64,000 nucleotides of DNA from Crocinitomicaceae bacterium (GTDB taxonomy: Bacteria; Bacteroidota; Bacteroidia; Flavobacteriales_D; Crocinitomicaceae), in contig CBDDLF010000007.1 in NCBI GenBank assembly GCA_965230585.1, positions 68,188 through 132,187 of the forward strand, given 5' to 3'. This document shows, in pieces, positions 2-51,200 of the stretch. The notes beneath the pieces are model-generated. The model saw nothing but the letters and a program-made list of their open reading frames with translations. It was not told the origin of the DNA and made no database searches. Every line of letters begins with the position of its first letter. The first letter of the stretch is position 1. The position numbers and the translations under genes are program-made.

Positions 2-2722
2 CCGGCGGCTCCCGGTGAGGAGATCGACTTCTCCGTCTTCGCCACCGACCCCGAGAGCGACTCCCTCGAATACAAGCTCACCTTCGGCGACGGCTCACCG
101 GCACGGGATTGGGCCGCGGCGTCCGTGGCTGCCCACACCTACACCGAGTCGGGGCACTACTCCGTCAAGGTGCAGGTGCGTGACATCAAACCCGACGGCA
201 GCCACTCCGTGGTCTCGCAGATCTTGACCGTCAGCGTGGTGGAGCCGGTGACCGGACCGTTGCCGTCCCATTCGTCGCAGCTGGCTTTGGACGACGTCCG
301 CCGGGTGGTGTGGACGGTGAATCCGGACAACGATTCCGTGGTCCGGGTCGACGCCGACACCCAGGCCCTCTTGCAAACCATCGACCTGCGATCCCTGCTC
401 AATACCAGCGAAACCGTCGATCCCGTGTCCGTCGACGTCGACGGGAGCGGCAACGCCTGGGTCGCCGCCCGCGACAGCGACGCGCTGCTCGTGCTTTCTC
501 CTGTCGGCGCGCTGCTGGCCGATCTCGACCTGGGCTGGGGATCCCAACCCCAAGCGGTGGTAGTCCACGGATCCGACGCCTACGTCACCACCCGGGGCCG
601 CGGCACGGGCTCCCCGTCCGACGGCCAATTGCTGCGCTTCGACACCGGCACCTTCAACCCCGACGGCGCCGTCGACCTTGGACCGTTTGCCGGAGCCATG
701 GCGATAACCGGCGACGGCAGCCGCGCCTATGTCGCTCGCTTCCTCTCCAAAGAGCACCACGGTGAAATTTGGGAGGTCGACACCGCGTCCATGACGTTGA
801 CCCGGACCATCGACCTGCTGCGGGATCGTGGTGAGCGCGGCCTGGACGCCGGCGGATCCGACGGTCCGGGCGTGCCCAATTACGTGTCGAGCCTGGTGCT
901 CAGCCCGCAGCAGGATTGGCTGTGGTTCACGGCGATCAAGGCCGACACCAACCGCGGTCTCTTCTTCCGTCAAGACACCGACCTCAACCTGCCCATGTCC
1001 CCGGACTCGACGGTGCGCTCGGTGCTCGGACGCATTGACTTGAGCAACCCCGACAACCCCTTCGAGCCAAATATCGGCGGCACGGGATCGTCGCGGGCGC
1101 GGGTCGATATCGACAACTCCGACTCCCCGTCGGCGATGGTCTTCTCCCCCGCCGGGGACTACGTTTTCGTCGCCCTCCAAGGCAACGACACCGTGGCCGT
1201 TTTCGACGACCTGGCGATCCGCGACGGCGGTGGACGCAGCTCCACCTGGCGATTCGACAGCTCCGGCGGCGCCCCCCAAGGCCTGTTGTTGGATCCTTCG
1301 AACGATCGATTGTGGATCAAAAGCTTCCTCGGACGCTCCCTGACCAGCCTGTCGTTGACGGATTTCTTCGCCAGCGGTGATCGCACGGTCAACGATTCCA
1401 CCCTCGCCACGGTGGCGGGCGAGCTGCTGCCCAGCGCCGTGCTGGCGGGCAAGACCCATTTCTACTTCGCGGGCAATGCGGTCGATGGTCAGAACGAGAT
1501 GAGCTTCGAGGGATATATCTCCTGCGCGAGCTGTCATCTCGACGGCGGTCACGACGGCCGGGTGTGGGATTTCACCCAGCGGGGTGAAGGTCTGCGCAAT
1601 ACCACCGCCCTCAACGGACGCGCCGGTATGGGTCACGGCAACGTGCATTGGACGGCGAATTTCGACGAGATCCAGGATTTCGTCAATGACATTCAATTCC
1701 AATTCGGTGGCAAGGGTTTCCTGCCCGACGGCGAGACCGCCAATCCACCCCTCGGTGCCGCCAACGCCGGTCGCAGCCAGGAGCTGGACGAGCTGGCCAC
1801 CTATTTGACCTCCTTGAGCGCCGAGCGATTCGGTCGCAGCCCCCACCGCACGGGCGGCGGCGGGCTGAATGTCGACGCCCAGCTCGGTGCCACGGTCTTC
1901 GAGAACCTGGGCTGCGACAGCTGCCACCTCCCACAAACCGAATTCACCGACAGCACCCTCGGCACCGCCACCCTGCACAACGTCGGCACCCTGCGCACCA
2001 GCTCCGGCCAACGCCTGGGTGAGCCGCTCACGGGCATCGACACACCGACCCTGCTCGGCGTTTTCGACGGCGCGCCTTACCTGCACGACGGCTCTGCGGC
2101 CACTCTGGAAGAGGTCTTCTCAGCCGTCGGCGGCACGGTCTACCAGCTCGAGCTGGGCACCTTCGCCGGCGACGCGGATCTGCCGGGATTCCCGTCGATC
2201 AACCAAGACAGCTCGTTCCACGGCAACATGGTGCAGCTGGGCGGTCCGGGTGCGTCGGTCACCCTCGACAACGTCGACGGCGGATCCGGCGGTCTCGGTC
2301 GGCTCGAGCTGCGCTATTGGCCCACAAATTCGGGCACCCTGCGACTGCGGGTGAACGGCGCGGTGATCGAGGATCGGGATTTCGACCGCGAAACCGTGCA
2401 TTTCCATTGGGAACGCATGGCCTTCGACAACGTGCCCCTGAACGCCGGAGCCGTCAACTCGGTGCAAATCGAGCTGACCACCACCACCTTCTCCGACATC
2501 GGCTTGGACGACCTCACCGTCGGCACCGCGGACGACGTCGCCCAAGCGTCACCCCATCGGGTCGCCCTCGGCCTCAGCCAGGCTGAGCGAGATCAGCTGA
2601 TCGCCTTCCTCAACAGTCTGGACCGGATCAGCGCTGGGGCTCCGCCGGTGGATTGGGGTGTGTTCGAGGATGGTTTCGAAAGCGGTGACGTCAACGCCTG
2701 GTCGTCGGTGGTCGGGAACTGA
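2..2722 (+). CDS. Secreted multidomain protein, 5' partial: PKD-like domain, beta-propeller region, di-haem cytochrome c peroxidase (CCP/MauG family) with CBM-like insert, DGFESGD..W tail
   Basis: The frame of ORF 125..2722 stays open back to nt 2. The N-terminal part reads PKD-like (HTYTESGHYSVKVQVRD). Two CXXCH motifs sit in CCP context (CASCHLDGGHDGRVWDF, CDSCHLPQTEFTD, TPTLLGVFDGAPYLHDGSAATLEEV). The protein ends VFEDGFESGDVNAWSSVVGN. Confidence 0.85.
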   Translation, partial: PAAPGEEIDFSVFATDPESDSLEYKLTFGDGSPARDWAAASVAAHTYTESGHYSVKVQVRDIKPDGSHSVVSQILTVSVVEPVTGPLPSHSSQLALDDVRRVVWTVNPDNDSVVRVDADTQALLQTIDLRSLLNTSETVDPVSVDVDGSGNAWVAARDSDALLVLSPVGALLADLDLGWGSQPQAVVVHGSDAYVTTRGRGTGSPSDGQLLRFDTGTFNPDGAVDLGPFAGAMAITGDGSRAYVARFLSKEHHGEIWEVDTASMTLTRTIDLLRDRGERGLDAGGSDGPGVPNYVSSLVLSPQQDWLWFTAIKADTNRGLFFRQDTDLNLPMSPDSTVRSVLGRIDLSNPDNPFEPNIGGTGSSRARVDIDNSDSPSAMVFSPAGDYVFVALQGNDTVAVFDDLAIRDGGGRSSTWRFDSSGGAPQGLLLDPSNDRLWIKSFLGRSLTSLSLTDFFASGDRTVNDSTLATVAGELLPSAVLAGKTHFYFAGNAVDGQNEMSFEGYISCASCHLDGGHDGRVWDFTQRGEGLRNTTALNGRAGMGHGNVHWTANFDEIQDFVNDIQFQFGGKGFLPDGETANPPLGAANAGRSQELDELATYLTSLSAERFGRSPHRTGGGGLNVDAQLGATVFENLGCDSCHLPQTEFTDSTLGTATLHNVGTLRTSSGQRLGEPLTGIDTPTLLGVFDGAPYLHDGSAATLEEVFSAVGGTVYQLELGTFAGDADLPGFPSINQDSSFHGNMVQLGGPGASVTLDNVDGGSGGLGRLELRYWPTNSGTLRLRVNGAVIEDRDFDRETVHFHWERMAFDNVPLNAGAVNSVQIELTTTTFSDIGLDDLTVGTADDVAQASPHRVALGLSQAERDQLIAFLNSLDRISAGAPPVDWGVFEDGFESGDVNAWSSVVGN

Positions 2723-3736: not shown

Positions 3737-3995
3737 ATCCGGGAAGATCCTCCCGCCGGCGGCGTAGGGGAGGGATTGGAATCTGAATCACATCGAGTCG
3801 GTAGAAAAGATCCTGGCGAAAGCTACCGTTCGCCACTTCGGCCCGCAGATCCCGATTGGTGGTGAAAGCTCCCTTTTCGTGACCGAAGAGCTCGCTTTCG
3901 AGTAAGGTCTCGGAAAGGGTTGCGCAGTTGACCGCGATAAAGGCTTCCCCGGACCGCGGGCCGGCGCTGTGCAACGCGCGCGCCACGAGCTCTTT
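3711..3995 (-). pseudogene. Remnant of a sigma-54-dependent activator AAA+ domain
   Basis: [45 protein letters not shown] is joined directly to [40 protein letters not shown]. The stretch between GAFT and ATNRDL is missing. There is no REC or HTH domain and no Walker A start. Confidence 0.75.
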
Positions 3996-4031
3996 GCTGG
4001 TAATTTGAGGTGCCAGGCAAGTAAACCAGCA

Positions 4032-5968: not shown

Positions 5969-6261
5969 TCATAGTCGGATGGAAATAACCGGTATTTGAT
6001 TAGGTGATTTAGAGAGCAAATGGGATGCCACCCATGAGATCTTTGCGGATCCTTGCTTGAGATCTTGGGCCGGGCTTATTGTGCTGGACTCCTATTCATG
6101 TTCTTTTTCAGCCTTTATGAGGGAGTCTGTGATCCCACAAGGAGGCCCTCCAAGGTCCACCTGGTTTTGCAGGCCCCCCTTCGAATCTTGCAAAGAATCT
6201 GGTGGAGAGCCGCTGAAGGCAACCAAGAAGAGGCACTGAATACTTCAACATGCGGCCCAAA

Positions 6262-7035: not shown

Positions 7036-7081
7036 CCTCAGAAACTAGCTGGCCTCAGAAACTAAGTGGCACTTTTTCGGG
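7036..7081 (+). repeat. REP-like array, 2 degenerate copies
   Basis: cctcagaaactagctgg and cctcagaaactaagtggcacttttt, located between convergent genes. Confidence 0.6.
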
Positions 7082-7095
7082 CCCGGACTTTGGGC

Positions 7096-7344
7096 TCACC
7101 TAGGAACGGACAAACCCAGCTCCTCCGTGACCTGGCGAATTCTCCTCGCGGTACCGGTGTCCACCCCGGCTTCAGTGGCCTTGGTCATGATGCTCACCAG
7201 CACGCGCTTTTCCTCATCGTCCAGGTGGCCGTCCGCCTTCGCTAAGCCCAGCAAATAATTCAACTCGCTGACGTCGAGCTTGCCATCGTCGGTGAAGCAA
7301 CGAATGGATTCCACAGCGATCCTGAGATGTGAGCTGAGTGACAT
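7096..7344 (-). CDS. Small TerB-like protein
   Basis: DGKLDVSELNYLLGLAKADGHLDDEEKRVLVSIM fits the paired DG..E motif of TerB/DjlA-N-like domains. Confidence 0.5.
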   Translation of the reverse strand: MSLSSHLRIAVESIRCFTDDGKLDVSELNYLLGLAKADGHLDDEEKRVLVSIMTKATEAGVDTGTARRIRQVTEELGLSVPR

Positions 7345-7430
7345 GACGCCTCCTTGATCGAAGTTCGGGGCCTGAATGGATCTCCCACCTTGTGACTCTC
7401 ATACGCATCAACCCGCCATTTCATGCGCAG

Positions 7431-7530
7431 GTCTCAGCAACTACGTGGCACCTTTTCAGGTCTCAGAAACTACGTGGCACCTTTTCAGGTCTCACCTGTT
7501 CAGGGCTCAGAAACTACGTGGCACCTGGTC
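7431..7530 (+). repeat. REP-like array, 3 copies (two abutting 29-nt units plus one more)
   Basis: gtctcagcaactacgtggcaccttttcag (7431..7459) and gtctcagaaactacgtggcaccttttcag (7460..7488) abut. A third core lies at 7510..7526. The array sits in a divergent intergenic region. Confidence 0.9.
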
Positions 7531-24955: not shown

Positions 24956-25027
24956 CTCGGAAACTACGTGGCACCTTCCTCGGAAACTACATGGCACCTT
25001 CCTCGGAAACTACGTGGCACCTTCCTG
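24956..25027 (+). repeat. REP-like array, three abutting 23-nt units
   Basis: ctcggaaactacgtggcaccttc occurs three times (24956, 24979, 25002). The middle unit has one G to A change. Confidence 0.95.
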
Positions 25028-25040
25028 CGAGCGAGCCGAT

Positions 25041-25523
25041 CTAAGGGTTCGTGTCTTGGTCGGCGCCACCGTCGGAGAACAAACCGAAGGCCGACAGGCC
25101 GAGACCCAGCCCGAGAATGGCGCCGGAGATGACATTTACCATGGGTGCCGCGTAGTGAACCTCATAGTCGGCTCCGATCCCCGCCAACAGCGCCAAGAGA
25201 AAGCCGCCCAGCAACCCATGGAAGGCCCAAAAGCTGCCGCGATAGAGCCCTTTCCAAATCACGAAAAGCGCCAGGAGGCAAAAGGCGGAATTCATGCCGT
25301 TCGCGAAAATGGCGATGGAATCCACGGTCGACAGCACATCTGCCGGTAGGGCGTCGGCTTCTTTATCGTTGAGGAGGGAGTACAGCGCAGGGGTGTGGCC
25401 ATCGTAGAATAGGGTAAAAGCGATGATCCCGGCGGATGGAATCAAATTCAACACCGTCCAAACCGTAAGAACGGCGCAGCCCACCTTCAAAATCATCTTT
25501 CTTTTCACAGGCTCCTCCTCCAT
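25041..25523 (-). CDS. Hypothetical 4-TM membrane protein
   Basis: 160-aa ORF with four hydrophobic segments. I recognise no family. Confidence 0.55.
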   Translation of the reverse strand: MEEEPVKRKMILKVGCAVLTVWTVLNLIPSAGIIAFTLFYDGHTPALYSLLNDKEADALPADVLSTVDSIAIFANGMNSAFCLLALFVIWKGLYRGSFWAFHGLLGGFLLALLAGIGADYEVHYAAPMVNVISGAILGLGLGLSAFGLFSDGGADQDTNP

Positions 25524-25573
25524 GGATCGGCTTCTTGCCCGGAGAGATCCTTTACCCGGCCTCAGAGACGGCC

Positions 25574-25627
25574 TAGGAAACTACGTGGCACTTCTGGCCG
25601 CCTCAGAAACTACATGGCACCTTCTAC
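25574..25627 (+). repeat. REP-like array, 2 copies
   Basis: taggaaactacgtggcacttctgg and cctcagaaactacatggcaccttctac. Confidence 0.85.
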
Positions 25628-27376: not shown

Positions 27377-27531
27377 GACGCACCACTTCTGGAAACTACG
27401 TGGCACCTTTTCCATGGATGCGCTTCTGGAAACCGCTTCTGGAAACTACGTGGCACCTGTTCGGTGGACGCACTTCTGGAAACCACTTCTGGAAACTACG
27501 TGGCACCTTTTCCATGGATGCGCCGACGCAC
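27377..27531 (+). repeat. REP-like array, 3 perfect cores in nested repeats of about 50 nt, directly upstream of the transposase-like gene
   Basis: cttctggaaactacgtggcacct occurs at about 27386, 27436 and 27486. The flanks ttttccatggatgcg occur twice. Partial units (cttctggaaacc) lie in between. Confidence 0.95.
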
Positions 27532-33263: not shown

Positions 33264-33282
33264 CTCGGCACGGACCTTGCTG
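33264..33282 (+). promoter_or_regulatory. Sigma-54 promoter candidate (CGGCACG-GACC-TTGCT) for the kinase/regulator operon
   Basis: Matches TGGCACG-N4-TTGCW at every position except the first T. GG is at 33267-68 and GC at 33279-80. The site is about 60 nt upstream of the ATG at 33340. Confidence 0.6.
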
Positions 33283-35467: not shown

Positions 35468-36916
35468 ATGTCGGAAAGAATTCTCATCGTCGACGACGAG
35501 CCCACCATCCGAGTGGCCCTCGAACGCTTGATGGCCGGTCGGGGTTACGACGTTGAGACGGTCGGCAGCGGCGAAGACGCCGTCGAGCTGCTCCAACAAC
35601 AACGCTTCCACTTGGTGATCACGGACCTCACCCTCGAGCCCATGAGCGGCATGGAGCTGTTGACCTGGATCCAGGAATCCCTCGGCAGTGCCGACGAGCA
35701 CCGACCCGCGGTGATCATGATCACCGCCTACGGCTCCGAGCGCACAGCGGTGGAAGCCCTGCAAAAAGGCGCCGTCGATTACCTTCCGAAGCCCTTCGAC
35801 AACCGGGAGCTGGTGCTCGTGGTCGAACGCGCCTTGGAAGAAGGGCGCCTTCGGCGAGAAGTGGGCCATCTCCGTCGGGCGGTGGACGACCGCTATCGCT
35901 TCCACCGCCTGATCGGCAAGAGCCCGGCCATGCTCGAGGTCTTCGAGCGCATCCGCAGGGTGGCCGATACGGATCTGACCGTGTTGATCCGGGGGCCGAG
36001 CGGCACGGGTAAGGAGCTGGTGGCCAACGCCCTGCACTACAACAGCCCCCGTCGCCGTCGTCCCTTGGTCAAGGTCAACTGCGCGGCCTTTTCCCGGGAG
36101 CTGGTGGAGAGCGAGCTCTTCGGTCACGAGCAGGGAGCCTTCACGGGCGCCACCCGAGCCCGCCAAGGCAAATTCGAGCAAGCGGACGGCGGCACCCTCT
36201 TTCTCGACGAAATCGGCGACATGCCCCTCGAAACCCAAGCCAAGGTGCTGCGGGTCTTGCAGGAGAAGACTTTCGAGCGGGTGGGCGGCAACAAAACCTT
36301 CACCGTCGATGTTCGGCTGGTGGCCGCCACCAATCAGGACCTGGAATCCCGCATCGCCGATGGCCAATTCCGCCGGGATTTGTTCTATCGCCTCAACGTG
36401 GTGCCCGTGGACCTACCTCCGCTAAAAGATCGACCGGAAGACGTGCCCCTGTTGATCGAGCACTTCTTAGCCGGCGCCTCCGAACGACTCGGACGCCCCC
36501 CTCGACCCCTGCACGTCGACGCCCTGCGGACCCTCATGGCCCATGAGTGGCACGGAAACGTACGCGAGCTGGAGCACGCCGTGGAGCACGCGGTGGCCCT
36601 GGCCGGTGGTCAGGAAATCATGGTCGGCGACCTGCCGACCTCCGTCACCGCCTGCGTCTCGGGATCAGCCGGTTTCGGACCGGGTAGCCTTGGACCGAGA
36701 AGCCTTGGCCTGGGCGGCTCCGGAGCGGTCACCAGCACCGATTTCAAAATCGCCAAACAAGAGGCCGTCGAGCACTTCGAGCGCACCTTCATCTGTGGCG
36801 CCCTCAGACGTCACGGCGGCAACGTTACCCGAGCCGCCGAAGAGATGGGCATGTACCGCCAACACCTACAAATGAAGCTGAGCAAGTTGGGCATCGACCC
36901 CAAAACCTATCGCTGA
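35468..36916 (+). CDS. Sigma-54-dependent response regulator (NtrC family)
   Basis: REC domain (ILIVDDEPTIR...DLTLEPMSG). AAA+ domain with GPSGTGKELVA, GAFTGA and RDLFYRLNV. C-terminal Fis-type HTH. Confidence 0.95.
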   Translation: MSERILIVDDEPTIRVALERLMAGRGYDVETVGSGEDAVELLQQQRFHLVITDLTLEPMSGMELLTWIQESLGSADEHRPAVIMITAYGSERTAVEALQKGAVDYLPKPFDNRELVLVVERALEEGRLRREVGHLRRAVDDRYRFHRLIGKSPAMLEVFERIRRVADTDLTVLIRGPSGTGKELVANALHYNSPRRRRPLVKVNCAAFSRELVESELFGHEQGAFTGATRARQGKFEQADGGTLFLDEIGDMPLETQAKVLRVLQEKTFERVGGNKTFTVDVRLVAATNQDLESRIADGQFRRDLFYRLNVVPVDLPPLKDRPEDVPLLIEHFLAGASERLGRPPRPLHVDALRTLMAHEWHGNVRELEHAVEHAVALAGGQEIMVGDLPTSVTACVSGSAGFGPGSLGPRSLGLGGSGAVTSTDFKIAKQEAVEHFERTFICGALRRHGGNVTRAAEEMGMYRQHLQMKLSKLGIDPKTYR

Positions 36917-41800: not shown

Positions 41801-42623
41801 GGATTTCTCCCTCGACCCCGAGGTGGGTTTTGGAACGAGCCTGGGACAGAACATCTCCGGCAACGTCACCAACGGCGTGGTCCGGATTTGGTCGGGAGAC
41901 CCGGGGGATTGCAATGCCGACGGCATGGTCGATTCCGGCGATCTCGAAGCCACGGCGCTCGAAATTTTCGACGCCGACGGCGAAGCTTGGCTCGACGCCC
42001 CGGGCGGTACCTTCTCCGGAAGCCCCGTGGGCTGCGATGCCAATGCCGACCTTCAGATCCGAGCGGCGGACCTCGTCTGTGCGAATCTGCTGAGCACCGA
42101 AACCGCGTGCGATTCCAGCGGCGATCTCCAGAGCCAAAACGAGCTTGAGATCTCGACCCGTTGGCGGGAGGGCGTGTCGTGGATTCGTCTTGAGGTGACG
42201 TCGGAGCAGCTCGAGCCGAATAATCCCATCGGCGGTTTTGCCCTTTCCCTCGACTTCGACCCGGCCCTTTTCGATCTCGGCTCGGTCGACGCGGACGCCG
42301 ACGGCGTGCCGGACCTCCTGCGTTTTCCCCAGGGTCAGCCTGGATCGGTCATCGTGCTCTGGAGTGATAGCGACACCGACGGCGAGCTCGACCTCGCCAT
42401 CGCCGATCTCGACCAGCTGCCCCTTCCCGAAGGGATCGTCGTAGAAGTCGGCGTGCCCGCCAATCATCTTTTCGAAGGTGGGATCACCGCCTCCCAAGAT
42501 CCAGCCCCATCGTTCGCCTCACCGCACGGCGCGGATTTGACCTCCAGCGTCCAGATCCGATCGGGCATCTTCGTCGACGGTTTCGAATCCGGCGACACCT
42601 CCCAGTGGATCGGCTCTGACTAA
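38850..42623 (+). CDS. Giant secreted protein: about 14 tandem propeller-blade repeats of about 57 aa, cohesin/dockerin-like region, DGFESGDTSQW tail
   Basis: The preferred ATG at 38850 follows GGAGAA and gives the signal peptide MIRALCHVLFFCPMFLSFLLAESAAA. The repeat reads IAKWDG.(A/S)W..LG.G....V.AL.VFDDGSGPALY.GG.F..AGG. The protein ends GIFVDGFESGDTSQWIGSD. Confidence 0.85.
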   Translation: MIRALCHVLFFCPMFLSFLLAESAAAQPQEPLRAIFLNIEAPNSSPQLAVHWTGDPNARLSVWLDLDGDGRGQDSELVIRDVLLRDEMKVFELEASFGTPALEPHSQALFRVTLHDEVVNEFLQLIREPAPSVGPGTGPEHCEWSPDFYQRDLDGAVESSAIFDDGTGPALFVGGSFGSVNATKISNIAKWDGTSWHPLGSGTNGTVYALTVYDDGSGPALYAAGSFTEAGGVSANRIARWDGTAWHPLGQGVGTFRIHKLTVYDDGSGPALYAGGYFSEAGGAEAHNIAKWDGAAWSAVGSGVNDQVHDLHVFDDGNGSALYVGGRFFAAGATGAQHLAKWDGSAWSAVGSGSDQPIRALHTFDDGSGPALYIGGEFTTVDGVAASRIAKWDGTQWSSLDVGANGWVYDLAVYDDGGGSALYAVGSFPNAGGISAGRVAKWDGTQWHSLNSQIENTVYHLNVFDDGSGSKLYVGGLFTIPGEANHIATWDGSAWSALSSSPPTGLGLSSVVEDFAFFDDGNGPALYAAGHFRTAGGVAAQRLAKWDGTSWHALGSGIDNAVLALAVFDDGSGPALYAGGFFFEAGGVPAKSIAKWDGSAWSPLGSALQGLISDLVVFDDGGGPALYASGHSLFLNGSVAGPIVKWDGSSWSTLDASLGFGVGTGVSSLAVFDDGNGPDLYAAGNFTTIDGVQAANVAKWNGTSWSSLGGGTNNRIRRLATLDDGNGPALYVGGDFTSVDGIDAHRIAKWNGTDWSAMGAGFDNYVFALGSFDDGSGPAIYAGGFFRSSGATPVNRLARWDGSQWQPMGAGVNGPIDAMMPYDDGRRSSFYIGGSFTAADGLPSMRVAKYTCFSPPSLSLPALTHTAVSSWVEIPIELQTGGRSLDSATFSIDYDETCLNPDLNGDGVPDHIELQLPELLEVDIAFDPLDTDGELDLTVSLLEGAGEGFPNRGADDGLPDGALLTIGFQATCSAAPGSSTDAAVDFSLDPEVGFGTSLGQNISGNVTNGVVRIWSGDPGDCNADGMVDSGDLEATALEIFDADGEAWLDAPGGTFSGSPVGCDANADLQIRAADLVCANLLSTETACDSSGDLQSQNELEISTRWREGVSWIRLEVTSEQLEPNNPIGGFALSLDFDPALFDLGSVDADADGVPDLLRFPQGQPGSVIVLWSDSDTDGELDLAIADLDQLPLPEGIVVEVGVPANHLFEGGITASQDPAPSFASPHGADLTSSVQIRSGIFVDGFESGDTSQWIGSD

Positions 42624-42675
42624 GCTGTCCTGTTGATCCGAAACTGGGCCTGGGCCCTAGCCCACTAGATCAACA

Positions 42676-42709
42676 GCAGACGCCGGTCGAATTTCCGACC
42701 GGCGTCTGC
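42676..42709 (+). terminator. Strong hairpin after the stop codon (14-bp stem, no clear U-tract)
   Basis: gcagacgccggtcg, loop aatttc, cgaccggcgtctgc. Confidence 0.55.
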
Positions 42710-42720
42710 CGTGTTCTGAG

Positions 42721-42950
42721 GTCTCAGAAACCCGTCCGGAAACAACCAGGCACCTGCCTGGGGGCTGAAACTTGCTGCCCGAGGAAACCGTGCCCACGGA
42801 AACTACGTGGCACCTGCCTGAAGGCCGTCCGGAAAGGCCGTCCGGAAAGGCCGTCCGGAAATCACGGGACACCTGTTTCGAAGCCGTCCGGAAACTACAT
42901 GGCACCTCCCTGGAGGCTTCCCGGAAACTTCGCCAGACCTTCGGCTGCCG
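42721..42950 (+). repeat. Long degenerate REP-like array
   Basis: Two good cores are present: ggaaactacgtggcacctgcc at about 42798 and ggaaactacatggcacctccc at about 42889. Several decayed ones are also present (ggaaacaaccaggcacctgcc, ggaaatcacgggacacctg), along with ccgtccggaaagg repeats. Confidence 0.8.
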
Positions 42951-43122
42951 AGGCGTTCACAAGATACAAGTCTTGCATCCTTCTCCTGGTGGGTCTCGGT
43001 CTGGCCATAAATCTGGTCAACATCGTGTTGCCTTCGTGGGCAGGACTACACCCTCCGTTGGCAGAGCTGCTCGTATTCCTCACTAAATCGCTCAAAAAAC
43101 ATCTACTTTCATCCACTTTCAC

Positions 43123-43139
43123 CTGGCATGCCCATTGCT
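43123..43139 (+). promoter_or_regulatory. Sigma-54 promoter candidate (CTGGCAT-GCCCA-TTGCT)
   Basis: TGGCAT is at 43124..43129 and TTGCT at 43135..43139. The GG-N10-GC spacing is exact. The site is 80 nt upstream of the ATG at 43219. Confidence 0.6.
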
Positions 43140-43218
43140 CTTTCCGAGGGTACGTCACAGCCCGCGTCAGGGTTTACGACCTTCGTTTTACTTTCCACTT
43201 TCTGAAAGGGACAAACGC

Positions 43219-46200
43219 ATGCAATTCCGTTGGAAATTCCTTAACTGTCTCGTTCTCTCGGCGATCACCGTCTCGTCGGTAGCCTTCGGGGCGGCACCCT
43301 CTGTTAACCGTCCGTCGCCTTTCCCGAATTACACGGTTGGTGACCTCGCGACTGTGATCATCTCCACCAATCCCGCGCAGGCCAACGCCCCAGTATATCG
43401 CTTCCGCTACAAAAACGGCCAGCCCGATGGTGATCAGCCCACACACATCGGCAATACCGGTGCCGATGGACGTCTCGCAATCGAAAACTTGCCGCTCGGC
43501 TTGGGCAATATTGGCGACTATACAAACGAGCAATTCGCCGTCGGTAGCCCGACGGGACAACGATCGAGCTCCATCAGCTACAGCATCCATGCAGCCAGCG
43601 CGCCGGATTCTTCCAGACCTTGGCCGTATCCGGATTATGAGATCGGCGAGCCGGCGACCAACATCATCACCACCAGCCCGGCCCAGGCGAATCAACCAGT
43701 CTACCGCTATCGTTACAAAAACGGCCTGCCCGACGGTCAACAGGGCATCTTGATCGGCCACACCAATGCTCAGGGATCGCTGACCATCCAAGCCACGCCC
43801 ACCGCGGCCGAAATCGGCCACTACACCATCGAGCGCTTCGCCGTCGGCACCGTGAGTGGCCCGAAGTCCAGCTCCAACAACTACTACGTGCATGCAGCGA
43901 ATGGGCCGTCGGCTGTCCGCTTTGCTCCGTTCCCGAGCTACGAGGTCGGAGATACCGCTGTGCTCGATATTTTCACGTCTCCCGCCCAGGCCAATCAAAA
44001 GGTTTATCGCTATCGTTATAAAGACGGCTCGGCCGACGGCAACCAGCCCACCTTGATCGGCATCACCAACTCCCTCGGTAGGCTGCGCAACACCTATGTG
44101 CTTGAGCAGAGCGATATCGGCACCTATTCCAGCGAACGCTTCGCCGTCGGCACTCCTACAGGTCCGACGTCAACATCCTTGAATTTTGTGGTCAGTAGCG
44201 CTGAACAGTCTCCGGTGGCTCCCACTGCAGAACGTCCCGCTCCCTTCCCGGATTACCAAGTAGGAGACACGGCCAGGCTGATCGTCACCACCGATCCGCC
44301 GCAGGCCGGGCAAGCGGTATATCGATACCGATTACGGGACGGACAACCCGACGGCGCCCAGCCGACCCACATCGGCAATACGGACGCATCCGGTGTTTAC
44401 GACATCAGCCTGCCGTTGTCGGAATCCGAAATCGGCACCTATTCCGATGAACGCTTCGCTGTCGGCGACCCTAGCGGACCAACCTCCGCTCCCAACACCT
44501 ACACGGTCTCCGAGCGGACGGGCCCAACCATTGATTCCATTTCCATCGATCGCTTGGCCCAAGGTGTGGTGACCCACGTGTTGGTGCAGGGCGAGAACCT
44601 CAACGGCGCATCGGTGTGGGTCGATGGTGCCGGCACACTGCCCACCGCATCTGTGTCCAGCGAGGCCGCGGACGGTACGTGGCTCAACGTGGCCATCGAC
44701 ACCACCGCCGCTGGGATCCGAGGCTATTTCACCCTACTGGTCAGCCAGGACGTCGATAACTACGACCGCGCCGCCTTTGAGGTCGCGCCACCGGGACCGG
44801 CGATCAACGGCTTCACCCCGCCGTATCCCAATCGGGGCCAGTCCTATTTGTTGGTGATTTTCGGCCAGAATCTAGGCGAGGCCACCGTGACCAGCAGCAA
44901 TCCAGACTACGTGCAGGTGTTGGCACCGGGAAGCGGTGAGGCGTCCGTGCACGCCCAGCCCAACAATCCGCCTCCAGTCGACACAGACGTCGACGGAGCG
45001 ATCCAGGGCATCTTGCAGGTCGCGGCGAATGCCCCGTTGGGTCCGGTTCAGCTGTTGGTCGAGAATTCCCAGGGCGCCACAGCCGTCACCCTCAACATCA
45101 CCGACGGCGGACTGGCAATGTTCGCAAACGTCAACCAGATCAACCTCACAGAGAGGGCCACCGGCAAAGCTGGACGTTCTCCTGAGCTGGTCCCAGACCT
45201 GATGGTGCAGGACTTCCACCTAGACCATCAGCTCACTTTCTCCAAAACCGGCCGAATGGAGCCGCACGCGGATTGCGCCGGCAGCGCATCATTTCGAGCC
45301 TTCAAACAAGAAGCCAAGGTTTACGCGCTCAAAGACACTGGCGAAGCTTTGACCTGGGCCAGCCTATTACTGGGAGTCCCCCAGGATTTCAGCGTGCTGA
45401 CGGTGGCCGCCTACATCGACGCCGAAGCTCGCCTATTCTGGAATTGCGATCCACCGTGGGACGAATCCCAGCTCGATTGGCGTATTTCCCTCGGTTTCGA
45501 GGTCGTGGGCCTCTTCAGCCTGGAGCTGACCGTTCGTCCCGACAACGGTCGCATCATCATCATGAGGGAAGCCCAGAGCATTTTCGATCGATTCGATTTC
45601 GGTCGAATCGGGCAGTCGGACGACTGCGTGGATATCTCGTCCGAGCCCTATGACCCCTTGAATTTCTCCGGCACTCGCCAGTTCCAGCTCACCCAATCCC
45701 GCTGTTGCCCGGGCGAGGTGCCGATCAGCTTCGCAGCGTCCATCTTCCAAGCATCACCGGTGGCCTCCGCAGACCTGATCGCCAACGAAGCCGTGGTCAT
45801 GAGGACCGAGCCCGAGGAAGAGGACTGCCCGTGCTTCGCCAACGACGACAGCCCCAGTCAATGCCCGTTCAATACCCTAAAAGTCCAAGAAGTGTCCTTC
45901 GAGCAGGACATATCCATTGTGAAAGATCAGAGAAACAGTCTTACACCCATCACGGATCCCGTTTGGATCAATCACAACGGCGAAACAGCACCGGAAAAGA
46001 ACGAGCCGGTCGCTTATATGCGGAATCAACAACTCGCCGTCAAAGCCAAATTCAGCATCAGCCCAGCCCTGGAAGACCCGTTCCCCGTCACTTTCCGAGC
46101 CAAGGGTCCGGACAATATGGTTTTTTGGAGCCAAGAGATCCAGATGGTCGGAAAACAAGTGACCGTTCCCCTGGTGTCGGACATATTGGCCCCCAACCAC

Positions 46201-47100
46201 ACCAAGCACTACAAGCCGATGACACTGACTTGGGAGTATTGCGAGCAGGATCCGGTCAACTGTGTGGACGACTCGGATTTCTTCATGGCAGGCCAAACTC
46301 GGCATGAGGTCTACTTGACCCTTGACCACACACCGACGAACGTCTTTTTGAGCGTGCTGGCCCTATCGATCAACGCGGGCGGCGCCACAACCCGGGACCA
46401 AGCCGCTTGGGACGCTTGGACGAATTTCATGAACCTGGATGTGACCACCTGGGACGACCGAAAGCTCTTCTACTATCGGCAGGGTGTAGGTTTCCAACAG
46501 GCCTGCACTACGGTTGAGCAACTTCTGATCGGCACCGGAGACGGGGGTTGCGATGCCTTTGCCAAGCTCTTGAAGAGAGTGCTTGCAGTGCACGGTGTCG
46601 CTTCTACCATCAATAAGGTGGCCGTGAGAGACAGCTGCCGAGTCGTAGGCGACCAATTGCTAGGTGATTGCTGGTTCCTCGTAGGAAACTTCAACTTCTG
46701 GCGCGAGTCCGAGCCAAGCGCGCCAGAGTACAAATGGAGGATGAACCTCTTCAACGAGGGCGTTGGCCTGGGAATGGTTCCAGCCCCTCCCCACCACAAA
46801 TTCGGCGACCTGGAAAGCCAGACCGGGATTCCGGGGCAGAACAGCCCCATGCCTTCGGAGAAGGTTTTTGGTGAGCACTATGTGCTCTACGTGCCGGACC
46901 TCACCAGCTACGGGTTCCCCGTCTACCTGGATCCCAGCTACGGAACGCACTACTTCAACGAGCTCGATTTCGAGCTTGGAGCCGTAGTCGGATACGGTAC
47001 GACTATCGACAGTCCCCGGATCCAGGTCAGGAAGCCGAGACCCGGCGAGGGTAATATTCGTTTCATACCGCAGTTTTTCAACCAGATCGATAAGGAATAG
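43219..47100 (+). CDS. Large secreted protein: four repeats of about 100 aa, IPT/TIG-like domains, transglutaminase-like (papain-fold) C-terminal domain
   Basis: The ATG at 43219 gives the signal peptide MQFRWKFLNCLVLSAITVSSVAFG. The repeats read PFP.Y.VGD......T.PAQAN..VYRYRYK.G.PDG.QP..IG.T...G......IG.Y..ERFAVG. A Cys/His/Asp set lies in transglutaminase-like context (GDGGCDAFAKLLKRVLAVHGV, GEHYVLYV, VYLDPSYG). Confidence 0.8.
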   Translation: MQFRWKFLNCLVLSAITVSSVAFGAAPSVNRPSPFPNYTVGDLATVIISTNPAQANAPVYRFRYKNGQPDGDQPTHIGNTGADGRLAIENLPLGLGNIGDYTNEQFAVGSPTGQRSSSISYSIHAASAPDSSRPWPYPDYEIGEPATNIITTSPAQANQPVYRYRYKNGLPDGQQGILIGHTNAQGSLTIQATPTAAEIGHYTIERFAVGTVSGPKSSSNNYYVHAANGPSAVRFAPFPSYEVGDTAVLDIFTSPAQANQKVYRYRYKDGSADGNQPTLIGITNSLGRLRNTYVLEQSDIGTYSSERFAVGTPTGPTSTSLNFVVSSAEQSPVAPTAERPAPFPDYQVGDTARLIVTTDPPQAGQAVYRYRLRDGQPDGAQPTHIGNTDASGVYDISLPLSESEIGTYSDERFAVGDPSGPTSAPNTYTVSERTGPTIDSISIDRLAQGVVTHVLVQGENLNGASVWVDGAGTLPTASVSSEAADGTWLNVAIDTTAAGIRGYFTLLVSQDVDNYDRAAFEVAPPGPAINGFTPPYPNRGQSYLLVIFGQNLGEATVTSSNPDYVQVLAPGSGEASVHAQPNNPPPVDTDVDGAIQGILQVAANAPLGPVQLLVENSQGATAVTLNITDGGLAMFANVNQINLTERATGKAGRSPELVPDLMVQDFHLDHQLTFSKTGRMEPHADCAGSASFRAFKQEAKVYALKDTGEALTWASLLLGVPQDFSVLTVAAYIDAEARLFWNCDPPWDESQLDWRISLGFEVVGLFSLELTVRPDNGRIIIMREAQSIFDRFDFGRIGQSDDCVDISSEPYDPLNFSGTRQFQLTQSRCCPGEVPISFAASIFQASPVASADLIANEAVVMRTEPEEEDCPCFANDDSPSQCPFNTLKVQEVSFEQDISIVKDQRNSLTPITDPVWINHNGETAPEKNEPVAYMRNQQLAVKAKFSISPALEDPFPVTFRAKGPDNMVFWSQEIQMVGKQVTVPLVSDILAPNHTKHYKPMTLTWEYCEQDPVNCVDDSDFFMAGQTRHEVYLTLDHTPTNVFLSVLALSINAGGATTRDQAAWDAWTNFMNLDVTTWDDRKLFYYRQGVGFQQACTTVEQLLIGTGDGGCDAFAKLLKRVLAVHGVASTINKVAVRDSCRVVGDQLLGDCWFLVGNFNFWRESEPSAPEYKWRMNLFNEGVGLGMVPAPPHHKFGDLESQTGIPGQNSPMPSEKVFGEHYVLYVPDLTSYGFPVYLDPSYGTHYFNELDFELGAVVGYGTTIDSPRIQVRKPRPGEGNIRFIPQFFNQIDKE

Positions 47101-47117
47101 CGCTTACCTTCAGCTAG

Positions 47118-47160
47118 CCCCTCACCACGGTCGATTCCGACCGTGGTGAGGGGTTTTATT
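47118..47160 (+). terminator. Rho-independent terminator
   Basis: 16-bp perfect stem cccctcaccacggtcg/cgaccgtggtgagggg with a 4-nt loop, followed by TTTTATT. Confidence 0.9.
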
Positions 47161-47242
47161 AGATGGACCAAGCAAACATCGTCGACGATTTCGAACATGG
47201 AATCTCAGAGAACGTGAGTAGAAAGCTCTATGAGCTCATATT

Positions 47243-47791
47243 TTCTCCGAAGCCGGAGGCGCAACGGCCAACAACATCGCCAAATGGGACGGCTCCCAAT
47301 GGTCTCCTCTCGGCACGGGGCTGGGCGACCAAGCTTATGCTTTGTACGCCTACGACGATGGCTCCGGCTCCGCCCTCTATGTCGGCGGCAATTTCACCAC
47401 CGCTGGGCCGACCAAGGCAGAACATCTCGCCAAGTGGGACGGGTCGGCTTGGGCGATGGTTGGCTCAGGCACCAACCGACCCGTTCGAGCCTTCAATAGT
47501 TTCGATGACGGCACAGGATCAGCTCTTTACATTGGAGGAGAATTCACCGCCGTTGACGGGGTCGCCGCCAATCGCATCGCCAAATGGAATGGGGGGGAGG
47601 GGATCGCCATAGAAATCGGCGGGCCCGCCAATCATCTTTTCGAAGGTGGGCTCACTGTCTCCCAAGATCCGGCCCCGTCGTTCGCCTCGCTGGACGGCGC
47701 GGATCTGGCATCCAGCGTCCAGATCCGCTCCGGCATCTTCGTCGACGGTTTCGAATCCGGCGACACCTCCCAGTGGACCGGCTCTGAATAA
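47243..47791 (+). pseudogene. Truncated paralog of the propeller-repeat gene (about 3 blades fused to the last 60 aa and tail)
   Basis: It reads FSEAGGATANNIAKWDGSQW...IAKWNGGEGIAIEIGGPANHLFEGGLTVSQDP...GIFVDGFESGDTSQWTGSE. It has no ATG and no signal peptide. The fusion point lies at a G-run near 47590. The tail segment is highly similar to 42435..42623. Confidence 0.7.
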
Positions 47792-48245
47792 ATCGTCGAA
47801 TTGACCCGGAACGGAGCCCGCCAAAGCGGCGTCTTCGTTCTCCGAAGGGATCTCATCCAATAGCCCAGGGTAGCCGGAGCGCCACCCTGGGCTCAAAGGT
47901 ATACGCATCTCGAATAGGCGCGACTGCTCTCGCGGGTTGAGGCCGAAAGGCAAAGGTAGTCGGGGGCGCCTAGCCTCGGAATTTATTCCGTGGCGGGGCC
48001 GCCCAGGCGCGGTGCGGCGAACGATATCGGTTCCTGTCTTCCTCGCGGGTGAGGCAGAAAGCTTCGCTAGGATTCGGTCAAAGACCCGAAAAAGCTCAAC
48101 ACCGTGTTCCAGTCTGGGAAGCTTTTGCGCGTCCTCAATAGTCAGCTATCTCTTTGGGAGGAGGCCGACGCCCCAAGGGTGATCCGGCAGGCATATGGTA
48201 CAGTTCTAGGGTAAATCCACCGCATATGAGAGGTTCGTCGAAGAG

Positions 48246-51200
48246 ATGACTCTGCCTTCCGGTTTGCCCCGTATCGGCACCTACCGCTTGAAGGAGTTGC
48301 TGGGCAGGGGCGGCATGGGCGAGGTGTTTCTCGCGTGGGACGAGCGCCTGGAACGCCATGTGGCGTTGAAGCGCGTCTTGCCGGATCCGCCACCCGACGA
48401 GCACGCAAGGCTTCGATTTCGTCGTGAAGCCAAGGCCGTAGCCCGGCTGAGCCACCCAGCGATCGTCCAGGTCTTCGAGTTGTTGGAAACCGAAGATACC
48501 GACTGCTTGGTGATGGAGCTGGTAGAAGGCCGCGGCTTGAAGGAGCTGATCGCGACCGGCGAGCTCGACGTGGTCTCGACCCTCCGTTTGGCCTGCGAGA
48601 TCGCTGACGGCTTGTCGGAGGCTCACGGCAAAGGGCTGATCCACCGCGATCTCAAACCCGAGAACGTTCGGGTCACCCCTTCCTTCCACGCCAAAATCCT
48701 AGACTTCGGTCTGGCGCGCCTGCTTTGGGGCGACGGCCTCGATCATGACAGCCTGGGAGCAGAACACGGAAAAGCTCTCACCAAATCCGGGGCTTTGGTC
48801 GGCACGGTTCACGCCATGTCTCCGGAGCAGGCCAGCGGCCGAGCGGTGGATCACCGTTCGGATCTTTTTGCGCTCGGTGGCTTGCTCTACGAGATGCTCT
48901 CGGGCGAGCCCCCATTCCGTGGCCACAACGTGCTCGACACCCTGCGGCGAGTGACCAGTGAATCGCCGACTCCTCTGAAGGAGCTGTGCCCGCACCTGGA
49001 TCTGGAGCTGGTGGACTTGGTGAATGCCCTACTGGCCAAAGAGCCGAACGAGCGTCCACAAAACGCACGCATGGTGGCCGACACCCTCGAACGGCTGCGC
49101 ATATCGGCCCAAACCGGCTCCGCTGCCCCTCTGCCGGTATCCCCCGGGCGAGCACCCGGCGCAAGAAAGCCCAGCTCCAGTGAGGAGGGTGTCGCGACCT
49201 CGGACCTAGCCGACCTGCCCACCGGTGAGTGGCCCAGCCCGGAAGATCTCCAGACGGCCGAAGGCGAGATCGAAACGGTGGTACGCGCCTTGTTGTTTAC
49301 CGACCTGGTGGACAGCACTCGCATGGTGGAGTCCCTAGGGGATGCACGGGCCGCCGAGATCTCCGCTCGCCACGACCGGGTGGCGAGGGATTTGATGGCC
49401 AACTATTCAGGGTTGGAAATCGACAAAACCGACGGCTTCTTGATGCTCTTTGAGCGTCCGTTCGATGCCGTGGCTTGTGCGCTGGCCTATCACCATGCGT
49501 TAGTGGACCTGTCCAACGAGCTCGGCGTGGAGCTGGCGGCCCGCGCCGCGGTGCACCTCGGGGAGCTGCGGCTTCGCCACAACTCACCGGACGACGTTTC
49601 CCGCGGTGCCAAACCCCTGGAAGTGGAAGGTCTCGCCAAACCCACGGCAGCACGTCTGATGGGCCTGGCCGGGGCTCGTCAAACCTTGCTCAGCCACAGC
49701 GCATTCGAGATGGCCAGACGCTCGGCCGTGGACGACGAGCGTTGGGACGACGACCTGCGCTGGCTGGCCCACGGTGAATATCAATTGCAAGGTGTCGACG
49801 ATCCCGTGCAGGTCTTCGAGGTGGGGGTGGCCGATTTCGCCCCCCTCGCTGCCCCGGCCGACTCCCCTAAGGCCCAACGCCGGGTCTCGGTCTCAGAAGA
49901 GATGATGCTCGGTTGGCGTCCCGCGCCGGGTCAAACGGTGCCTAGGCGACCCACTTGGCGGCTTGAGCAACGCCTGGGCGAGGGCGGCTTCGGCGAGGTC
50001 TGGCTCGCCGTGCACGAGTCGGGGGAGAAGAGGGTTTTCAAATTCTGCTTCGAAGCGTCCCGTTTGCGCGCCTTGAAGCGAGAGGTGACACTCTTTCGTT
50101 TGCTCAAAGAGGCCCTGGGCCACCGGGACGACATCGCCCGTGTGCTCGATTGGAGCTTCGACGCAGCTCCCTATTTTCTAGAAGCCGAGCACACCGAAGG
50201 CGGCGATTTGACGGCCTGGGCTGAAGAGCAGGGTGGCCTGGACGAGATTCCGCTCGCTACCCGAGTGGAGCTGGTGGCTCAAGTGGCCGACGCCCTGGCC
50301 GCCGCACACTCCGTGGGTGTCTTGCACAAAGATGTGAAACCGGAAAACGTGCTGATCACCCAAGATGTGAACGGCCATCCGCGGATCCGCCTCACGGATT
50401 TCGGAGTCGGCGCGCTGGTCGATCGATCCTTGCTCGAATCCCAAGGGTTGGCAGCCATCGGCTTCACCGCCACCTTGACCGAGGATGCGTCCAACGCCGG
50501 CAGTCGACGGTATATGGCTCCGGAGCTGCAAGAAGGCAAAACGGCCACCATACAAGCCGATTTATATTCCTTGGGGGTGATGCTGTACCAAGTCGTGGTC
50601 GGCGATTTTTCCCGCGCCCTCGCCCCGGGTTGGCAGCGAGACGTCGAAGATCCTCTACTGGCGCAAGACATCTCGTCCTTGGTGGACGGCTCGCCAAATG
50701 AGCGTCCAACCGCCGCCGGCCCCGTGGCTGAGCAGCTGCGGGCTTTGGACCGACGGCGAGCGGAGCTACAGGCGGCAGAACGAACGGATCGACGGCGACA
50801 CAGCCTGCGCATCGCGGGCATGGTGGCGGCCGTGCTCGTCTTGTTGCTCTCGGCCCTGCTGGTGCAATCCCAGCTCGCCCGCCGCCAAGCCGAGCATCTC
50901 CAAGGACGCGCCGAAGAGGCTCGGGAGCAAGCCGAAGACTTGATCGGCTTCATGCTCGGGGATTTGCAAGAGAAGCTACAAGCCATCGGTCGTCTGGATG
51001 CCCTCGAAGGCGCCGGCGAAAAAGCACTGACCTATTTCGACGCCTTGGGTGAAGAAGATCTAAACCCTCAAACCAGAACCCGCCACGCCAAAGCCCTGCA
51101 CCAAATGGGCGACGTGAAAATGGCCCAGGGAGATCTCGACGGTGCCTTGCAGCTCTTTCAGCAATCCCTGGCTCAAACCCAGGAGCTCGTGGACCAGGAG

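Follow-up and report, generated by a model that had tools for sequence, protein, structure and literature searches.

What does a 1293-aa exported protein with a Cys-His-Asp motif set near its C terminus do, and how is its gene switched on? These questions are raised by the gene at 43219-47100 of the window, by which we mean the whole 64,000-nt stretch analysed (C7:68188-132187, C7 being contig CBDDLF010000007.1); coordinates are those of the window unless a contig or locus is named. We have reasonable, though not strong, confidence that the product is an exported Cys-His-Asp thiol enzyme of the transglutaminase/papain-like superfamily, carried on a repeat stalk and made via sigma-54.

Gene and protein layout

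The initial annotation had described a secreted multidomain protein of 1293 aa, and the open reading frame (ORF) at 43219-47100 agrees with it. Its N-terminus, MQFRWKFLNCLVLSAITVSSVAFG/AAPS, resembles a Sec signal, as judged by inspection only. The features of the gene and its immediate borders are as follows.

42673..42712, + strand: hairpin 3′ of the upstream propeller gene, 17-nt arms and 6-nt loop, kept in a close relative
43124..43139, + strand: sigma-54 type -24/-12 element TGGCAT-GCCCA-TTGCT, TGGCATGCCCATTGCT, with GG-N10-GC spacing and one mismatch to TGGCAC-N5-TTGCW
43206..43211, + strand: Shine-Dalgarno-like AAGGGA, 7 nt 5′ of the ATG, from sequence reading
43219..47100, + strand: coding sequence, 1293 aa and TAG stop (ATG at 43219, TAG at 47098-47100)
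43219..43293, + strand: Sec-type signal peptide, aa 1-25, AFG/AA, by inspection
43309..44538, + strand: four tandem repeats of ~101-105 aa, an uncatalogued module (aa 31-132, 133-233, 234-338 and 339-440)
44539..45183, + strand: two presumed Ig-like modules, aa 441-655
45184..45864, + strand: conserved Cys-rich middle module, aa 656-882
45865..46329, + strand: Ig-like beta-sandwich of the C-terminal head, aa 883-1037, fold like RhoGDI/UNC119
46330..47097, + strand: predicted transglutaminase/papain-fold catalytic core, aa 1038-1293
46549-46551, 46876-46878 and 46930-46932, + strand: codons of the triad residues C1111, H1220 and D1238
47116..47162, + strand: intrinsic terminator, a perfect 18-bp stem with a 4-nt loop, then UUUUAUU

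The hairpin at 42673-42712 is likely the end of the upstream propeller transcript. As the 1293-aa gene is thus set apart from its upstream neighbour, and carries its own -24/-12 element and terminator (-44 kcal/mol, z = -8.4), it looks monocistronic.

The C-terminal head and its proposed superfamily placement

Homologs were collected by an exhaustive HMMER search with aa 94-1293 (E<=1e-3), with representatives being clusters at 50% identity. At least 671 representative proteins matched, mostly through aa ~883-1290 only, the part that we call the head. This domain is always C-terminal on exported beta-sandwich stalk proteins, ending 0-70 aa from the stop in all 40 loci with a frame that could be followed, and the N-terminal stalks of family members include Glucodextran_B, Big_1, CarboxypepD_reg, Big_9/cadherin-like and PKD modules. 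The hosts are all metagenome-assembled genomes (MAGs), mostly of Acidobacteriota (Terracidiphilus, Bryobacterales, Vicinamibacterales), Verrucomicrobiota, Planctomycetota and Candidatus Parabeggiatoa.

Three residues near the C terminus had been proposed to stand in a catalytic context: Cys in GGCDAF (C1111), His in EHYVLYV (H1220) and Asp in YLDPSYG (D1238). Their conservation bears this out. In an alignment of 135 homologous domains they are essentially invariant (C1111 in 135/135, H1220 in 132/133 and D1238 in 133/133), and they are invariant also in all 42 genome-derived copies. Conservation in the 135-domain alignment extends to the flanking motifs GxGQC..FA.L, GQN...PSEK.F..H and DPSYG.

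AlphaFold2, run on a 42-sequence alignment from genome loci, gave confident models both for aa 881-1293 (predicted local distance difference test, pLDDT, 91.5; predicted TM score, pTM, 0.91) and for aa 1038-1293 (pLDDT 89.8, pTM 0.89). In the modelled head, a beta-sandwich (aa ~886-1035) precedes an alpha/beta core. In the numbering of the core, helix 74-86 begins at Cys74 (C1111), strand 183-187 begins at His183 (H1220) and strand 199-201 closes at Asp201 (D1238). With the Cys at a helix start and His and Asp on the next two strands, the predicted order of secondary structure is the papain/transglutaminase arrangement.

Structure searches with Foldseek pointed in the same direction. When the whole head was compared with the PDB, the sandwich matched RhoGDI/UNC119-type Ig folds, and human transglutaminase 3 (TG3) was aligned over 407 columns (E 5e-4, probability 0.93). 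The core alone retrieved nothing from the PDB at E<=1e-3; its best matches were Streptococcus pyogenes TglA, arylamine N-acetyltransferases (NATs), PeiP/PeiW, 3KD4, TG2, TG3, factor XIII, Rad4 and axonemal chains, the last of which we take to be perhaps the transglutaminase-like DRC7. In the viral library the best matches of the core were a phage pseudomurein endoisopeptidase and an N-acetyltransferase. Although individually weak, nearly all of the top matches of the core belong to the superfamily. At the level of profiles, hhalign of the family against a 17-sequence Transglut_core alignment from other genomes aligned both catalytic-Cys motifs, Cys on Cys (E 2.3e-4, probability 44%, 99 columns). 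Of 40 family members searched against Pfam, three matched PF01841 weakly, with a best E of 0.0045, and the 1293-aa protein (P0001) stayed below the gathering score of this family (23 bits). An insertion of ~70 aa between Cys and His would explain why profiles fail. As these weak signals from Foldseek, hhalign and Pfam all point the same way, we read the head as a divergent family not described before, which falls in the transglutaminase/papain-like thiol-enzyme superfamily but outside Pfam Transglut_core. The transglutaminase-like assignment made in the initial annotation therefore stands at the superfamily level, by fold, triad and hits, and not at the level of Pfam Transglut_core, whose thresholds the head does not reach.

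Comparison with known enzymes of this fold places the head near several of them. With Transglut_core and the animal transglutaminases (human TG3, PDB 1L9M) it shares the Cys...His...Asp order with strands carrying His and Asp, the Cys in G-x-C-x-x-F-A-x-L at a helix start, and an N-terminal beta-sandwich before the core, the arrangement aligned with TG3. It differs from them by ~70 more residues from Cys to His, by low TM scores and by invariant motifs of its own (YY, GQN..PSEK.F..H, DPSYG). S. pyogenes TglA (PDB 9CRN) has the top Foldseek probability for the core (0.95, E 0.02), but only about a third of the core aligns, with a root-mean-square deviation of 4.3 Å over 93 columns. Our literature search found no open paper on TglA function and nothing relevant on secreted transglutaminase-like proteins of Acidobacteria. 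PeiW/PeiP (PDB 8JX4, 8Z4F; phage psiM2 enzyme) are extracellular transglutaminase-fold Cys-His-Asp enzymes that cut a cell-wall isopeptide, and are among the best fold matches in the PDB and viral libraries; however, the match is weak (E 0.1-2, ~100-115 columns), their biology is that of archaeal viruses and methanogens, and they have no stalk or partner in common with the head. The NATs (PDB 2PFR, 1W6F), which are recurrent matches, have a Cys-His-Asp triad on a transglutaminase-related fold, but they are cytoplasmic and acetyl-CoA-dependent and match weakly. BDI_1141, a 'putative protease' (PDB 3KD4) of a type common in Acidobacteriota, is likewise a transglutaminase-fold protein that is exported by bacteria and has no known function; the core matches its fold weakly (E 0.16), and it belongs to another family with another architecture.

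The putative sigma-54 promoter element

A near-consensus -24/-12 element had been noted about 80 nt upstream of the start codon. It lies 79 nt 5′ of the ATG (as CTGGCATGCCCATTGCT, 43123-43139), and both statistics and position make it convincing. The 64-kb window holds two copies of the strict pattern TGGCAY-N5-TTGCW where 0.02 would be expected, an enrichment of ~100-fold, and none of 100 shuffles reached two copies. We also scanned the 169-kb block of C7 in which the window lies for TGGCAC-N5-TTGCW, allowing up to one mismatch outside the invariant GG and GC. Four of the six sites found, the one at 43124 included, sit 46-79 nt 5′ of a long same-strand ORF; the other three of these are listed here.

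33266..33281, + strand: near-consensus -24/-12 element, 58 nt before the histidine kinase / NtrC-type operon
6015..6030, - strand: near-consensus -24/-12 element, 46 nt 5′ of an ORF of 162 aa
C7:66559-66574, 1.6 kb before the window: perfect sigma-54 element TGGCACGTCGCTTGCT, 60 nt before a 1424-aa secreted-protein gene (also window 2-2722)

Encoded at 35468-36916 is the NtrC-type regulator, which combines a receiver, a GAFTGA-bearing AAA+ domain and HTH_8 and lies with its kinase 6 kb upstream of the 1293-aa gene; a second intact GAFTGA activator is encoded in the 169-kb block. No sigma-70-like site was found on the + strand of 42500-48400, a scan that included the region 5′ of the gene. From these sites and activators the block's host appears to use sigma-54. 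Given the motif enrichment, the positions of the block's sites, the GAFTGA activators and the lack of a + strand sigma-70-like site, the element at 43124-43139 is probably a working promoter. It resembles known sigma-54 promoters with NtrC-type activators in its -24 GG / -12 GC at canonical spacing, its near-consensus sequence and the GAFTGA regulator with kinase 6 kb upstream, and differs from them in that no activator site was recognised upstream and that the regulator is kept in a relative that has no such gene.

Two further observations concern sigma-54 activators elsewhere in the block. A second activator gene lies ~2.4 kb upstream of the TGGCACGTCGCTTGCT element, and the 1424-aa secreted protein encoded behind that element ends in a DGFESGD..W tail. 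At 3861-4001 (C7:71967-72188, - strand), an open frame of 106 aa contains part of the AAA+ domain of a sigma-54 activator, probably a broken gene.

Repeats, Ig-like stretch and Cys-rich middle

The ~100-aa repeats were reported at the outset as unrecognised, and neither the whole 1293-aa protein nor the repeat profile has a match in Pfam, NCBIfam or the PDB. The further copies are 50-53% identical to the first one, and the four repeats share 33 invariant columns. The repeat is rare, found in ~15 of 150 listed representative proteins. It occurs also at the C terminus, after a PPC domain, of thermolysin-type (M4) metallopeptidases from other metagenomes (P0008 and P0038), and since it is appended to these enzymes too, it acts as an accessory module that is portable among secreted enzymes.

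The stretch at aa 441-655 had been assigned to two IPT/TIG-like domains, which we could not confirm. It has no Pfam TIG (PF01833) match at E<=0.1, and hhalign against a TIG alignment from other genomes gave weak results (34% probability over 33 columns for aa 436-535, and 8% for aa 530-660). An Ig-like nature is plausible. The Cys-rich middle, in turn, is well founded: eight Cys fall within aa 686-882, and C686, C803, C829 and C830 are invariant in seven of seven full-length relatives. A PDB sequence search with the alignment of full-length relatives returned nothing usable. The whole architecture is common to P0002 (35% identity) and P0003 (34%) only, and P0004, P0006/7 and P0011 carry the same repeats and middle module with other C-terminal ends.

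An exported partner in related loci

At the loci of P0002 and P0003, a gene of ~236 aa starts 29-39 nt past the stop codon, and the two products are 34% identical. Of 39 related loci with at least 600 nt of downstream sequence, 24 proved, by a profile made from these two, to have the partner family directly downstream in the same orientation, in several phyla and sometimes in two copies. Four examples are given below.

L003:4953-5663: partner gene
L004:11075-11788: partner gene
L019:4111-4824: partner gene
L009:3513-4235: partner gene

The ~230-aa partner has a signal peptide, low conservation and no invariant catalytic-type residues, and it has no match in Pfam, NCBIfam or the PDB. It is possibly an inhibitor, an immunity protein, a chaperone or a substrate. 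Nowhere in the 169-kb block did the family give a hit, even at E<=10; the partner's usual place is taken here by the terminator and a propeller-gene remnant. Each of two Candidatus Parabeggiatoa MAGs has several copies of the head family, often with a partner gene (L010, L012, L015, L016, L025, L027, L028).

Genomic setting

The assembly has a G+C content (GC) of 42%, except for the first ~168.9 kb of C7, which are at 60% and contain the window. The switch takes no more than ~100 nt and falls in an ORF whose beginning encodes an IS3-type transposase OrfA before it runs on into unrelated low-GC sequence (L087 ~5890, C7 ~168,890). The 1.27-Mb contig C7 is thus probably chimeric, joined at a repeat. 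Because the 169-kb block encodes an ADOP duplicated permease that passes the curated cut-off, and because the named best matches of its NtrC-type regulator are from Acidobacteriota, the block looks Acidobacteriota-like by sequence and not derived from the 42%-GC genome. The join makes the rpoN gene at C7:716705 uninformative on the window's organism; as support for sigma-54 use it was dropped after the GC break and the join had been found.

A regulator 91% identical to that of the window is encoded on JAUIJL010000040.1 (GCA_030431255.1), a contig whose colinearity with the window, at ~80% nucleotide identity, extends from the M1 peptidase gene up to where the propeller gene ends. Past 42760 this relative has ~480 nt and then a metallo-beta-lactamase gene, which in C7 lies ~22 kb further. 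A variable region of ~22 kb, from 42760 to 64000 and on to about C7:133359, is therefore absent from the relative, and such a position fits the lack of close orthologs of the 1293-aa gene. The region also holds a kinase-cyclase-kinase gene, orphan ORFs, a peptidyl-prolyl isomerase gene, a sulfatase gene and a second giant propeller paralog. Copies of the propeller-gene 3′ end with its DGFESGDTSQW tail, ~90% identical, bracket the 1293-aa gene at 42440-42640 and 47600-47820; only the first of them continues in synteny with the relative. Two other features border the gene.

47163..47819, + strand: propeller-gene remnant with the second copy of the DGFESGD...W tail, marking a rearranged region
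42728..42927, + strand: array of repeats like repetitive extragenic palindromes, with RGAAACTACRTGGCACCT and CCGTCCGGAAA units, a dispersed intergenic repeat

The array at 42728-42927 was considered as a set of enhancer sites and ruled out, as 18 copies of RGAAACTACRTGGCACCT are found across the block in non-promoter places. These copies (7057-7509, 11749, 16765, 24959-25605, 27391-27491 and 42738-42890 in the window) are nearly all on one strand and often in arrays with a period of 23-60 nt, and the unit is also present in the relative (L088 8652-8759).

Proposed mechanism and rival explanations

In the explanation that we favour, the gene would stay off unless sigma-54 is activated by an enhancer-binding protein, for which the adjacent NtrC-type regulator is just one candidate. 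The protein would then be exported, its repeat stalk would hold or target the head, and the head would work extracellularly on a protein or cell-wall-type substrate, be it as a peptidase, an isopeptidase/amidase or a transglutaminase. Most relatives would produce the enzyme together with the exported partner of ~230 aa, which is not found nearby here.

Several results on the head weigh against this proposal. No single core match is significant alone (best Foldseek E 0.014-0.02, TM scores <=0.34), the hhalign probability of 44% covers the Cys region only, P0001 has no Pfam match at E<=0.1, and the Cys-to-His spacing of 109 aa is far longer than in canonical cores. The head might instead be a different Cys-His-Asp enzyme of the same broad fold, an NAT-like acyltransferase or a PeiW/PeiP-like endoisopeptidase that lyses microbes, and neither a protease nor a cross-linker. 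We regard this as rather unlikely, though NATs and PeiP/PeiW rank level with true transglutaminases in both Foldseek searches, export on a long stalk is seen with many lytic or surface-active enzymes, and the exported partner of the relatives would suit an immunity protein. Against it stand the general consideration that an acetyl-CoA-dependent reaction is unlikely outside the cell, the result that no peptidoglycan-binding domain was found in P0001 or in six long relatives, and the weakness of all matches. That the protein is no enzyme at all but a surface adhesin or structural stalk, with Cys, His and Asp kept for structure or binding, appears improbable. Beta-sandwich repeats do make up most of it, and in P0004, P0006/7 and P0011 the repeats and the Cys-rich middle carry unrelated C-terminal modules; but three residues that stay invariant across more than 130 domains at 25-40% identity, in the motifs GQC, GQN..PSEK.F..H and DPSYG, form an active-site signature.

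The promoter is open to a similar challenge, that the -24/-12 match does not work as one and that the gene is transcribed from an unrecognised sigma-70 or extracytoplasmic function (ECF) promoter or by read-through, with no dependence on an enhancer. This too we judge to be a minority possibility. It gains from the lack of any inverted repeat or palindromic enhancer in the 200 nt 5′ of the promoter element, from the lack of a comparable sigma-54 element before the gene in 33 related loci, and from the rpoN evidence, as the single rpoN detected falls in the 42%-GC portion of the assembly, probably another organism. The neighbouring two-component operon, moreover, is kept in the close relative that lacks the 1293-aa gene. 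These points likewise count against our proposal; the missing palindrome, the operon kept in the relative and the dispersed nature of the repeats weaken the link to the upstream NtrC-like regulator that had been suggested. On the other side, the motif is ~100-fold over chance and placed relative to the ATG like three other sites of the block, a hairpin separates the upstream gene, GAFTGA activators are encoded in the block, and the + strand scan showed no sigma-70-like site. The absence of the element from all 33 related loci also suggests that sigma-54 control is local to the 1293-aa gene and not a family trait. In this respect the control is uncommon, as had been stated, but a perfect element precedes another giant secreted-protein gene in the block; 'unusual' is overstated, sigma-54 control alone being ordinary for such bacteria. 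A last possibility, that the gene stems from misassembly or from contaminating foreign DNA and means nothing biologically, arises because the 169-kb block at 60% GC meets a 42%-GC genome within a truncated IS3-like ORF. We consider it very improbable, since the join is 57 kb from the gene, the surroundings are colinear with an independent assembly at ~80% identity, and the ORF is intact, has conserved homologs and comes with promoter, ribosome-binding site and terminator; what is wrong is only its assignment to the 42%-GC organism.

Implications

For curation, the genes of the window belong to an Acidobacteriota-like organism and not to the 42%-GC genome under which they are filed. The 1293-aa protein itself is a new family to annotate within otherwise known biology. 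Its head represents at least 671 protein clusters from poorly cultured phyla of soil, peat and sediment that have no Pfam, NCBIfam or PDB entry, and a superfamily placement with named catalytic residues and a confident model turns into a testable annotation for these proteins. The most interesting lead is the frequent exported partner, which points to a regulated or self-protected extracellular activity that has not been studied before. Tentatively, and as an idea that we rate as rather unlikely, the head and the ~230-aa partner may form an undescribed two-gene cassette of enzyme and inhibitor (immunity) or of enzyme and substrate, widespread in soil and sediment phyla, of which the 1293-aa gene would be a partner-less copy on a rare repeat stalk, newly under sigma-54 in a variable region. 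If this is true, the cassette might serve as a weapon that lyses or cross-links outside the cell, or as a tool for building a matrix.

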